Positions 35,818 through 38,343 of a stretch of DNA of 64,000 nucleotides are shown here, piece by piece. The position numbers and the translations under genes were made by a program. Position 1 is the first letter of the stretch; each line of letters opens with the position of its first letter. Source of the DNA: an uncultured Clostridia bacterium (GTDB lineage Bacteria; Bacillota; Clostridia; TANB77; CAG-465); NCBI GenBank assembly GCA_944388565.1, contig CALXJG010000002.1, positions 4,247 through 68,246 on the forward strand, written 5' to 3'. Below the pieces are notes generated by a model. That model worked only from the letters and a program-made list of their open reading frames with translations. It made no database searches and had not been told where the DNA came from.

Positions 35818-35849
35818 AAAAAGAACCGGACTTTTCCGATTCTTTTTAT
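35816..35849. terminator. imperfect bidirectional hairpin between the M23 gene and rpsT
   Basis: AAGAACCGGA-cttt-TCCGATTCTT (one mismatch), flanked by A and T runs. Confidence 0.45.
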
Positions 35850-36100
35850 TTATTTAATAATTTAGCAAGACTAGCTTTTTTTCTGCTAGCTGTATTTCTA
35901 GCTAAAACTCCCTTTGACCATGCTTTATCTACTAAGCTTACAGCTTTTGTATATAATTCATTAACATCTTTACTATTTTCTTTTACAGCGCTTTCAAAAG
36001 CTTTTATAGCTTCTTTGTATGCTTTTTTAGTAGCTCTGTTTTGTGCAGTTTTAGTTTCAATTACTTTAACTCTTTTTTTAGCAGATTTTATATTTGGCAT
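35846..36100 (-). CDS. rpsT: 30S ribosomal protein S20
   Basis: MPNIKSAKKRVKV... is the canonical S20 N-terminus. Confidence 0.9.
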   Translation of the reverse strand: MPNIKSAKKRVKVIETKTAQNRATKKAYKEAIKAFESAVKENSKDVNELYTKAVSLVDKAWSKGVLARNTASRKKASLAKLLNK

Positions 36101-36238
36101 ATTGCACCTCCTTATGGCAAACTAATATTATTACCTGTTCATTTTAACATAAGATTGTAAAAAAAGCAAGTGTTAATCTAAAAAAATACAAAAATCTAGG
36201 TAAACTAATTAAAAAATGATATATATAAACAAAAGAAA

Positions 36239-36265
36239 GTAGCGAAGAATATTATTCTTCGCTAC
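36239..36265 (-). terminator. intrinsic terminator after the ThyX-like gene
   Basis: GTAGCGAAGAAT/ATTCTTCGCTAC 12-bp stem, followed on the minus strand by a T-rich tract. Confidence 0.6.
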
Positions 36266-36270
36266 AAACA

Positions 36271-37560
36271 TTAAATATTTCTTTCAATTTGTTTTGAACC
36301 AAGCATACATTTATTATTGCAAAAACCATTTTTGAATAAGCATCTTGCAGTATGCCCTCCCGTTATTTCAAGGAGTTTATCTGCGTATATGCTATTTTGT
36401 ACGATTTTATTTGCAATTTCAACTTGATGACGCATTGTTTCAAGTTGTGTGCTACCACAGCATCTTTCTTCATACTTCATAATGAAAGTATCAATATTCC
36501 CTGTTTGAACAATTTTTACAATTCTTCCTTGCGGATGAATATCTATAACTTTACTTCCATCATTTAGCCATTCTTTTGAAAGAGCATTATCACTACTAAT
36601 GATTTTAGGTAAAATAAATTTTTTAATATCATTATATAAGAAACAATGCTCACTTCTATGACGCTGTACCTGGGCAAAGCATGCATAACTTGCATAATAA
36701 CTTGTTTGATATACATAACTAAATGTATCTTGTATATCAGCATATGCCGGATCTCCAATAAGAGAAAGTGTTCTTACTTTGTTAAAAGGAATTAATCCTT
36801 CAACTTGATATTCCTTTGCAAGAGATAAAAACTCTTTTAAAGCAGGTAAAGCTTGCTCATCGAAATTTTTTAATTTATAGTCTTCAAACATACAACTCAA
36901 ATAATCACACTGTGATATATATTTTTCAAACATATAAATTAAATAGTTCCATTGCCGAAGAGAAGTTGTGTATGCCATTGTAGTTAAAGGCTCAAATATA
37001 GATACAAAGTATCTGGCATTTTCTTGTGCCAATTTTTCAATAGCAAGCATTGGATTTTTTGCTTTCTCCTTGTATAGGCAAGGATATGTTTCTTTTATAA
37101 CTTTGCTAAGCTTACCTACCCACTTATTATACAGTTCTCCTTGGATATCAGTAAGATTTTCGTACTTTGTATATCTTGCTGATTTTTCAGAAGTTGTATA
37201 ATTTTTCTCATTATTTAAGAACATAGCGAGTATTTTAGGTATATTACTAATTTCAAAAGTTATATGAAAATGGTCAAAAACACTGTGGTGTCCGGATGTA
37301 AGGACTGTTTTTAACCTTCTGAAACTAGTTTCGGCACTTTCATTAAGAATTTTATCAAAGTTTTCTTTCATGTAACAGATTCCGGCAAGTTTAGCTGAGA
37401 GTAAAAGAGCTTTATATATATCAAAACTCTCATTAGAATCATAATGAGTAGAATTGAACAGTATTTTTAGTTCTTCTTCAGTTAACTTCCGAAATTCACC
37501 TAATTTGTCATTAGGATCAAGTTCGGGAACAATAGTATGCGCAACAATTTTTAATTTCAT
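36271..37560 (-). CDS. ThyX-like (Thy1 family, FAD-dependent thymidylate synthase-like) protein with internal duplication
   Basis: 429 aa. The first half reads SGHHSVFDH...SEKSARY, compared with ThyX HGHETPFEH...SGRY, but has NNE where RHR is expected. It also has ENARYF...TTSLRQW. The second half carries QRHRSEH and STQLETMRHQVEIANKI, compared with the ThyX AQxEI block. Confidence 0.6.
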   Translation of the reverse strand: MKLKIVAHTIVPELDPNDKLGEFRKLTEEELKILFNSTHYDSNESFDIYKALLLSAKLAGICYMKENFDKILNESAETSFRRLKTVLTSGHHSVFDHFHITFEISNIPKILAMFLNNEKNYTTSEKSARYTKYENLTDIQGELYNKWVGKLSKVIKETYPCLYKEKAKNPMLAIEKLAQENARYFVSIFEPLTTMAYTTSLRQWNYLIYMFEKYISQCDYLSCMFEDYKLKNFDEQALPALKEFLSLAKEYQVEGLIPFNKVRTLSLIGDPAYADIQDTFSYVYQTSYYASYACFAQVQRHRSEHCFLYNDIKKFILPKIISSDNALSKEWLNDGSKVIDIHPQGRIVKIVQTGNIDTFIMKYEERCCGSTQLETMRHQVEIANKIVQNSIYADKLLEITGGHTARCLFKNGFCNNKCMLGSKQIERNI

Positions 37561-37775
37561 CTTAAATCCTCCTAAAAAATTTTTTAAAAGCTAAGGTCTA
37601 AATTACATGTATTATACATTCAAAGAATAACAATGTCAAGAAATAATAAAAGTTATAGCTATGAAGTTAGTGCTTTATAAAGAGGCATAATTTAAGTACT
37701 TATATGCATTTTTGTTACATTTATGTTACAAAAATAAAAAAATGCTTATTTTTTCTATTTTTTTTGTAAAAAAGC

Positions 37776-37804
37776 TTGCTTTTTACATAAAACTGTTTTA
37801 TAAT
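37776..37804 (+). promoter_or_regulatory. sigma-A-type promoter of the S10 operon
   Basis: TTGCTT, 17-nt spacer, TATAAT. It lies about 220 nt upstream of the rpsJ ATG. Confidence 0.5.
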
Positions 37805-38025
37805 ATAAATGTTGATTTGCGTTGAAGTAAGATGTGGCTACTCTTTGAAGTAGGGAACTCTTATGGAGCATGTCTGATTTTAAATCGGGCGGCAAGTATA
37901 ATACTATGTATTTGCCAAATTTAAGATATGCATTAAATTTGGTTTTTATATGGATTATTTTGAAACACACGGGGTAGTGTAAAACTTGCTTCGCCAACAA
38001 ATTATAGAAAAGGAGTGTTTTACAA

Positions 38026-38343
38026 ATGGCAAAAGTAGAAACAAAAAAAATGAGAATAAGATTAAAGGCTTATGATCATGTTGTGCTAGAGCAAGCAGCA
38101 TCAAAGATAGTTGAAGTAGCTAAGAAAACAGGATCTGAAGTTTCAGGACCAATTCCACTACCAACTAGAAAAGAAATCGTTACAATATTACGTTCTCCAC
38201 ATAAAGATAAAGATTCAAGAGAACAATTTGAAATGAGAACTCATAAAAGAGTTATCGATGTTATTGCACCAAATCAAGCAACTGTTGATGCATTAATGTC
38301 AATAGATATGCCAGCTGGTGTAGAAATAGAAGTAAAATTATAA
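38026..38343 (+). CDS. rpsJ: 30S ribosomal protein S10
   Basis: Conserved sequence ([10 protein letters not shown]...) and first position in the S10 operon. Confidence 0.95.

Follow-up and report, generated by a model that had tools for sequence, protein, structure and literature searches.

A fused two-domain ThyX-like protein is the only recognisable thymidylate synthase candidate of an uncultured gut-associated Clostridia bacterium

Here we describe a gene at positions 36271..37560 (minus strand) of a 64,000-nucleotide stretch of DNA from an uncultured Clostridia bacterium (assembly GCA_944388565.1, contig CALXJG010000002.1; the whole stretch is hereafter called the window). Its 429-aa product is a fused, two-domain ThyX-like protein, referred to as W-type, and the gene probably encodes a functional flavin-dependent thymidylate synthase composed of two unequal ThyX domains. 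This reading draws on the homology of both halves of the protein to ThyX, the pattern of retained residues, conservation across the family, genomic distribution and synteny. An initial annotation, made from the DNA letters alone, had suggested a pseudo-dimeric thymidylate synthase, and our results agree with that suggestion: both halves were homologous to ThyX, their motif losses were complementary, the protein was the sole thymidylate synthase candidate of its genome and, in relatives, W-type genes never occurred together with ThyA and were adjacent to a thymidylate kinase gene (tmk). All motifs quoted in that annotation were verified by translation at their residues.

Both halves of the protein are related to ThyX

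The Pfam Thy1 profile (PF02511; gathering cut-off 24.8 bits) matched residues 54–205 with 57.1 bits (E 2.7e-15), covering profile positions 12–159 of 191. This match, alignments to Protein Data Bank (PDB) sequences, conservation and the local confidence of a structural model delimited domain 1, a ThyX domain of residues 1–215 (36916..37560, minus strand). Domain 2, a degenerate ThyX domain of residues 216–395 (36376..36915, minus strand), was recognised from conservation, from Pfam matches to C-terminal halves of the family and from profile alignment to canonical tandem ThyX proteins, which carry two Thy1 domains in one chain (Thy1-Thy1). The C-terminal halves of 9 of 23 diverse family members matched Thy1 at E ≤ 0.01 (best E 8.6e-6) with no competing family, and the second half of a homologue 58% identical to the window protein scored 26.4 bits, over the Pfam cut-off. 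When the 116 aligned sequences of the window's family (A2) were compared by hhalign with an alignment of 39 canonical Thy1-Thy1 proteins (A3), the match spanned both halves (Prob 98.5%, E 3.4e-15, 330 columns) and paired the Q..RHR of the window protein with the RHR of the second tandem domain, and ERxC..Q.E with LRTCxRAQWE. The same comparison with one single tandem protein aligned domain 1 alone, and the 39-protein alignment was therefore needed to align both halves.

Sequence alone barely reached solved ThyX structures, as the best phmmer match of the whole protein to PDB sequences had an E of 0.36, and a profile of the C-terminal half found nothing among PDB sequences. An AlphaFold (AF2) model built on A2 formed a single compact two-domain body, with a predicted local distance difference test score (pLDDT) of 89.7 and a predicted template-modelling (TM) score of 0.88. 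The best 50 matches listed by Foldseek for this model in the PDB were all ThyX (prob 0.92–1.0). TM-scores were modest, at 0.3 by query length and 0.5 by target length, because one target domain was overlaid on a two-domain query. As modelled, the protein adopts the ThyX fold. The two ThyX modules that the initial annotation had aligned by eye were thus recovered by the Thy1 match, by hhalign over both halves and by the C-half matches across the family, and the structure prediction that it had suggested as a check yielded a compact two-domain body with ThyX as its nearest listed neighbours. Three lines of evidence (hhalign, C-half matches and AF2 with Foldseek) speak against a single Thy1 domain attached to an unrelated remainder.

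ThyX motifs are divided between the two domains

Residues were mapped through alignments to Mycobacterium tuberculosis ThyX (Mtb; PDB 2af6) and Thermotoga maritima ThyX (Tm; PDB 1kq4, in which the chain number is the native number plus 12). Domain 1 retained H91, S93 and H97 (Tm H53, T55 and H59) within the His motif HHSVFDH (residues 91–97), as well as K109 (Mtb R87), E125, S127, R129 and Y130 (Tm E86, S88, R90 and Y91), E180 and R183 (Tm E144 and R147) and R202 (Tm R165). The S-x-R-Y substrate loop was present in domain 1 only, in SEKSARY (residues 124–130; 37171..37191, minus strand). At the place of the RHR motif, which contacts flavin and deoxyuridine monophosphate (dUMP), domain 1 had NNEK (residues 116–119; 37204..37215, minus strand), in which N117-E118-K119 occupied the positions of Tm R78-H79-R80. 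Across the family, N116 was conserved and residues 117–119 varied (N/S, E/L/Q/T/V and K/G/R/H/Q, respectively).

Domain 2 retained only Q297 (Tm Q75), R300-H301-R302 (the RHR motif) and R366, Q372 and E374 (Tm R174, Q180 and E182), and the motif set of domain 1 was wholly missing from it. The sole RHR of the protein lay in QVQRHR (residues 297–302; 36655..36672, minus strand), and the equivalent of the Arg174 helix was ERCCGSTQLE (residues 365–374; 36439..36468, minus strand), which carries C368. The division described in the initial annotation, with a first module that has the His and SxRY motifs and NNE in place of RHR, and a second module that has QRHRSEH and a QxE-type block and lacks the first-module motifs, was therefore located residue by residue. 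The contiguous ThyX signature RHRxxSxxxxSxR(Y) was present in neither domain; its elements existed only in trans.

Taken over both domains, equivalents of all 12 substrate- and flavin-contact residues were found (H91, Q297, R300-H301-R302, E125, S127, R129, Y130, R183, R202 and R366). Conservation was assessed in 142 diverse representatives that were 32–43% identical to the query. Ten of the 12 contact residues were kept in 136–141 of them, with Q297 kept in 130 and R202 in 117. By position, S127 and R129 were each kept in 141 representatives, H91, K109, E180, R183 and R366 in 140, R300 in 139, R302 in 138 and H301 in 136. The former RHR positions 117–119 drifted freely in the same set.

Predicted assembly of composite active sites

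In the canonical ThyX homotetramer, three subunits build each active site; in the Mtb enzyme, subunit A gives RHR and Arg199, subunit B gives Ser71 and Arg190, and subunit C gives Arg87, Ser105, Arg107 and Tyr108 (PMC6514825, section 3.1). Mtb Arg199 corresponds to T. maritima Arg174. Read against such a three-subunit site, the motif split would confine the A role to domain 2 and leave both the B and the C role to domain 1 alone. Domain 2 would thus contribute Q297, R300-H301-R302 and R366, and domain 1 would contribute H91/S93 and R202 in the B role and K109, E125, S127, R129 and Y130 in the C role. Two chains are predicted to pair into a pseudo-tetramer, (D1-D2)2, with two complete composite sites, each made of the two D1 domains together with D2 from a single chain, whereas the remaining two sites would be dead, and it is there that the former RHR positions would drift. 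The enzyme would methylate dUMP to deoxythymidine monophosphate (dTMP) using flavin adenine dinucleotide (FAD) and methylene-tetrahydrofolate. Methylene-folate would come from Fhs and FolD, since no serine hydroxymethyltransferase (SHMT) was found, and dihydrofolate reductase (DHFR) would not be required. The proposed oligomer and number of live sites are consistent with tetramer symmetry and with the conservation of residues; like them, the cofactors and the activity are inferred.

Thymidylate metabolism in the host genome

The genome, that of a gut-associated member of the Clostridia, has a small size of 1.38 Mb and a completeness of 98%. ThyA (PF00303), a second Thy1 match and DHFR were all sought in it and none was found. 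The lack of both ThyA and DHFR is the usual genomic signature of ThyX, and the W-type protein is the only recognisable thymidylate synthase candidate in the genome; the search for thyA, a canonical thyX and folA that had been proposed as a check on the pseudo-dimer thus returned none of them. A thymidine kinase, FolD, Fhs and a FolC-like gene were present. In-frame stops were suspected in Fhs, but the positions lay outside its open reading frame (ORF), and Fhs is intact.

Distribution of the family and occupants of the rpsT/S10 slot

Members of the W-type family formed 417 clusters at 50% identity (E ≤ 1e-30). Gut and anaerobic Clostridia contain many members of the family, which is annotated only via a weak domain match and, as far as we found, has never been studied. 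NCBI names members of both the W-type and canonical tandem families 'FAD-dependent thymidylate synthase'. We surveyed thymidylate synthase types in 41 relative genomes. W-type proteins occurred in 14, none of which had ThyA. ThyA was found in 11, with an additional weak partial match in G023; canonical tandem ThyX was found in five (G001, G020, G025, G027 and G031), and single-domain ThyX was the main type in one (G006). The sole type in 10 genomes was X3, a 217-aa protein (P0244/P0245) considered further below, and X3 homologues of 30–42% identity were also seen in G020 and G034, both of which have ThyA. No type was found in one genome (G017), and several types were combined in G020 only. Within the window's genus, the distribution of W-type was patchy (6 of 24 genomes).

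The gene order S10 operon, thymidylate synthase gene, (tmk), rpsT was conserved. In the window, the downstream border of this slot is rpsT (ribosomal protein S20; 35846..36100, minus strand), and the upstream border is an S10-Clostridia leader (RF03136; 37814..37895, plus strand) ahead of rpsJ (38026..). W-type genes filled the slot in relatives whose proteins were 62%, 58%, 55%, 51% and 38% identical to that of the window, and in relatives tmk comes after the W-type gene. Other occupants were canonical tandem ThyX (G020, beside rpsT and yabG), ThyA (G002, ~0.9 kb from rpsT) and, in many genomes, X3; a dTMP kinase gene often accompanied the thymidylate synthase gene. The slot was seen in the window at 35846–38343 and at loci L004, L005, L011, L014, L021, L023, L031, L033 and L044. 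Within one genus it carries five alternative genes (W-type subclade 1, W-type subclade 2, canonical tandem ThyX, ThyA and X3), which is non-orthologous displacement in situ.

A quick maximum-likelihood tree, which was unrooted, separated the W-type and tandem groups reciprocally with 100% support on each side and a joining branch of ~7 substitutions/site. W-type fell outside the canonical tandem clade, as sister or derived depending on the root, which the tree leaves unset, and both W-type subclades occurred in the window's genus.

Tmk was missing from 16 of the 41 relatives. A 191-aa P-loop kinase (MANSKLIVVEGPQGAGKTT...) with a faint Tmk match (E 0.007) was encoded directly after X3 at L044:3665-4240(+), and in G002 it adjoined ThyA and rpsT. 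This protein is probably a divergent dTMP kinase overlooked by standard models.

A conserved four-cysteine site

The C-terminus carries a Cys triad, C407-x6-C414-x3-C418 (CLFKNGFCNNKC, residues 407–418; 36307..36342, minus strand), in a tail that was modelled at pLDDT 90–95. A fourth Cys, C368, lies two residues after R366, the equivalent of dUMP-binding Arg174. All four were invariant in family alignments A1 and A2. Among the 142 representatives, C368 was kept in 141 and C414 and C418 in 140 each; all four were aligned in 129, and most exceptions had a Cys 1–2 residues away. The C-terminal Cys cluster of the initial annotation is therefore a near-invariant feature that comprises C368, C407, C414 and C418. 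The single-domain ThyX proteins of relatives had none of the four, and the canonical tandem family alignment showed an equivalent C...C-x5-C-x6-C.

The natural reading of C368 and the C-terminal triad is a predicted metal site that would hold either structural zinc or an iron-sulfur (Fe-S) cluster. An Fe-S cluster is a candidate because there are no CxxC pairs, the position is by the flavin/dUMP helix and the hosts are anaerobic. More speculatively, and in our view rather doubtfully, the Cys could hold a [4Fe-4S]-like cluster by the flavin/dUMP pocket, in which case the fused ThyX proteins of anaerobes would be Fe-S flavoproteins that receive electrons from ferredoxin or flavodoxin rather than from NAD(P)H, an unrecognised redox class with two sites per pseudo-tetramer. 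We found no mention of fused-ThyX cysteines or of an iron-sulfur ThyX in a literature search that mostly did not cover subscription journals.

Alternative explanations

Several observations weigh against a functional fused ThyX. The NCBIfam equivalog model for ThyX (TIGR02170) was missed, at 41.5 bits relative to a cut-off of 87.9 bits, and the C-terminal half of the window protein alone matched Thy1 at E 0.022, below the Pfam threshold. When the family's N-half and C-half profiles were compared directly, no signal was obtained (Prob 0.2%), so that the duplication is visible only via the canonical tandem family. No dTMP kinase was found in the genome with Pfam Tmk or by tblastn with the Tmk of relatives and the 191-aa kinase, and SHMT and dUTPase were likewise not found there; the surrounding pathway is thus only partly explained. 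Since the genome has a thymidine kinase, salvage could in principle suffice. The lack of a recognised dTMP kinase does not count specifically against the ThyX reading, because the thymidine kinase route needs a dTMP kinase too. In the literature, with subscription journals mostly outside coverage, we found no biochemical or structural work on duplicated or fused ThyX, and papers on C. difficile thyX held no domain information. Domain-duplicated ThyX was remarked on in 2009 in Chloroflexi and 'a few other species', with the comment that it 'has not been characterized' (PMC3224940).

The missed TIGR02170 cut-off and the ~7 substitutions/site branch from the tandem family reflect a strong divergence that could also fit a Thy1-fold enzyme with another nucleotide chemistry, such as methylation or hydroxymethylation of UMP, dCMP or dUTP, rather than a thymidylate synthase. 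The extra four-Cys site and the lack of a recognisable dTMP kinase or dUTPase in the genome could be counted for this view, as could the existence of ThyX homologues with other substrates, e.g., the UMP C5-methylase PolB of polyoxin biosynthesis. Nevertheless, every canonical dUMP-contact residue is retained in one domain or the other, the protein is the sole thymidylate synthase candidate of its genome, in relatives W-type is never accompanied by ThyA and hardly ever by another type of ThyX, tmk is adjacent there, and the gene has a housekeeping location and no biosynthetic cluster. We found no positive support for the different nucleotide chemistry that the initial annotation had offered beside thymidylate synthesis, and regard it as quite improbable. 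It is very improbable indeed that the gene is a decaying or non-catalytic ThyX remnant in an organism that lives on thymidine salvage. The thymidine kinase, the small, host-associated genome and the loss of one RHR motif are what such a remnant would lead one to expect, but the reading frame is intact and preceded by a consensus promoter and ribosome-binding site, ~30 catalytic-type residues are near-invariant in the 142 representatives, the family has 417 clusters, and the losses are complementary rather than random.

The gene had also been described as GC-richer than its neighbours and as consistent with horizontal acquisition. Its GC at third codon positions (GC3) was 0.200 (97th percentile; genome mean 0.130), and its synonymous-codon likelihood was at the 2nd percentile. 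Total GC, in contrast, was an ordinary 0.303 (86th percentile of 795 genome ORFs), below that of neighbouring rpsJ and rplC (0.32–0.33). The compositional claim thus stands for GC3 and codon use, not for total GC. A recently acquired foreign gene, lying as a single-gene island between rpsT and the S10 operon, would account for the atypical GC3 and codon use, for the gene having its own promoter and terminator, for the patchy occurrence in the genus and for the presence of two deep subclades of the family in the same genus. However, the same family occupies the same slot in relatives at 38–62% identity, the slot is taken in other species by ThyA, canonical tandem ThyX or X3, and the gene is not flanked by mobile-element genes or repeats within the window. 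Since the same slot holds W-type and other thymidylate synthase genes in relatives, it is a conserved thymidylate slot of this lineage rather than a foreign island, and the argument for acquisition from the rpsT/S10 location is largely lost. The atypical GC3 and codon use, together with deeply diverged alleles and non-homologous thymidylate synthase types within one genus, leave room for some exchange and point to repeated replacement of the slot occupant over evolutionary time. These data are better explained by old and repeated exchange of alleles at one fixed position than by recent insertion, which we consider improbable.

Local signals and N-terminal insert

The gene is a single-gene unit with its own terminator, as had been annotated, in so far as consensus matches indicate. 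A consensus scan found a sigma-70-type promoter match, TTGACA-17-TATAAT, with 12/12 positions (37639..37611, minus strand), and by consensus match a ribosome-binding site, AGGAGG, lies 7 nt before the ATG (37568..37573, minus strand). A terminator-like hairpin, also a consensus match, starts 6 nt past the stop and has a 12-bp stem, a 3-nt loop and a T-rich tail (36239..36265, minus strand). The S10-Clostridia leader, which is divergent from the promoter of the thyX-like gene, scored 34.1 bits in Rfam, just under the gathering score of 35.1. Upstream of the W-type gene, Rfam searches found no riboswitch or other regulatory RNA, the only matches being the S10 leader and, below threshold, unrelated families. 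The window showed no mobile-element genes or repeats beside the gene.

Residues 12–45 (37426..37527) form a lineage-specific N-terminal insert (PELDPNDKLGEFRKLTEEELKILFNSTHYDS...) limited to the closest subclade (P0003, P0004, P0013, P0017, P0023 and P0024). It was modelled with low confidence, and pLDDT fell below 50 at residues 34–43.

Comparison with known thymidylate synthases

Compared to canonical single-domain ThyX (TM0449, PDB 1o26; Mtb ThyX, PDB 2af6/3gwc), the window protein has a common fold by Foldseek, the same His motif, RHR, S-x-R-Y, E..R and Arg174-helix residues, presumably the same FAD and methylene-folate chemistry, and a common genomic signature (no ThyA and no DHFR). It differs in that canonical ThyX is a ~220–260-aa, one-domain protein with a full motif set per domain, whereas the window family has ~400–430 aa and two domains per chain with the motifs split, which would give half the active sites per domain. 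The window protein furthermore has the four-Cys site that the single-domain ThyX of relatives lacks, and misses the TIGR02170 cut-off.

Domain-duplicated ThyX (Thy1-Thy1, ~455–500 aa; 465–483 aa in five genomes of the same order) occurs in many Clostridia and Desulfobacterota and has the same two-domain layout. It shows the same split, in that domain 1 has E-F/H-R for RHR and keeps S-R-R-Y and EDAR, while domain 2 keeps RHR and LRxCxRAQWE. It also shows the same four-Cys layout, with one Cys placed two residues past the equivalent of Arg174 and three at the C-terminus, and can fill the same slot, beside rpsT and yabG. In contrast to the window protein, whose domain 2 is barely detectable, both of its domains are strong Pfam and TIGR matches (228 bits; TIGR02170 188 and 131 bits, over the cut-off). 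The window family is 50–90 residues shorter, and its C-x6-C-x3-C differs from the C-x5-C-x6-C of Thy1-Thy1. ThyA has its presumed product and, in relatives, its chromosomal slot in common with W-type and never occurs together with it; it has an unrelated fold and mechanism, requires DHFR and was not found in the window genome.

The X3 family

X3 was found outside the window, for example at L032:2088-2795(-) in G003, L044:2995-3663(+) and L060:3001-3651(+). It had no Pfam or NCBIfam assignment, with Thy1 reached only at E 0.07, and matched phrog_6721, which is labelled 'unknown function'. At least 8000 homologues were found, 'hypothetical' where named. A comparison of the X3 profile with ThyX gave no significant similarity. 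An AlphaFold model of X3 had a pLDDT of 80.8, and its best 50 listed Foldseek matches in the PDB were all ThyX (E 3e-5; TM-scores 0.45–0.54, full length). RHR is replaced in X3 by W-D/E-F/Y-D-T-Y-K, and S-x-R-Y by NSTSxMH. The gene lies in the rpsJ/rpsT slot and is followed by Tmk or the 191-aa P-loop kinase and a FolC-like ligase. In 10 genomes of the window's genus that have neither ThyA (apart from the weak partial match in G023) nor a Thy1 match, X3 is the only candidate of thymidylate synthase type. We regard X3 as a strong candidate for another analogue of thymidylate synthase.

Discussion

ThyX has been studied as a target for antibiotics and serves as a textbook example of the replacement of an enzyme by a non-homologous one. 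The W-type family may be seen as an experiment of nature in which fusion would have converted a homotetramer with shared sites into a pseudo-dimer whose halves lost complementary motifs, and it bears on the number of sites that ThyX needs and on the division of labour among its subunits. If the four-Cys site by the flavin pocket binds an Fe-S cluster, the question of the reductant for ThyX in anaerobes changes. X3, if it is a thymidylate synthase analogue, would close the gap left in many gut Clostridia genomes by the apparent lack of a thymidylate synthase. The presence of five interchangeable thymidylate genes, X3 among them, at one slot may matter more than the W-type protein itself.

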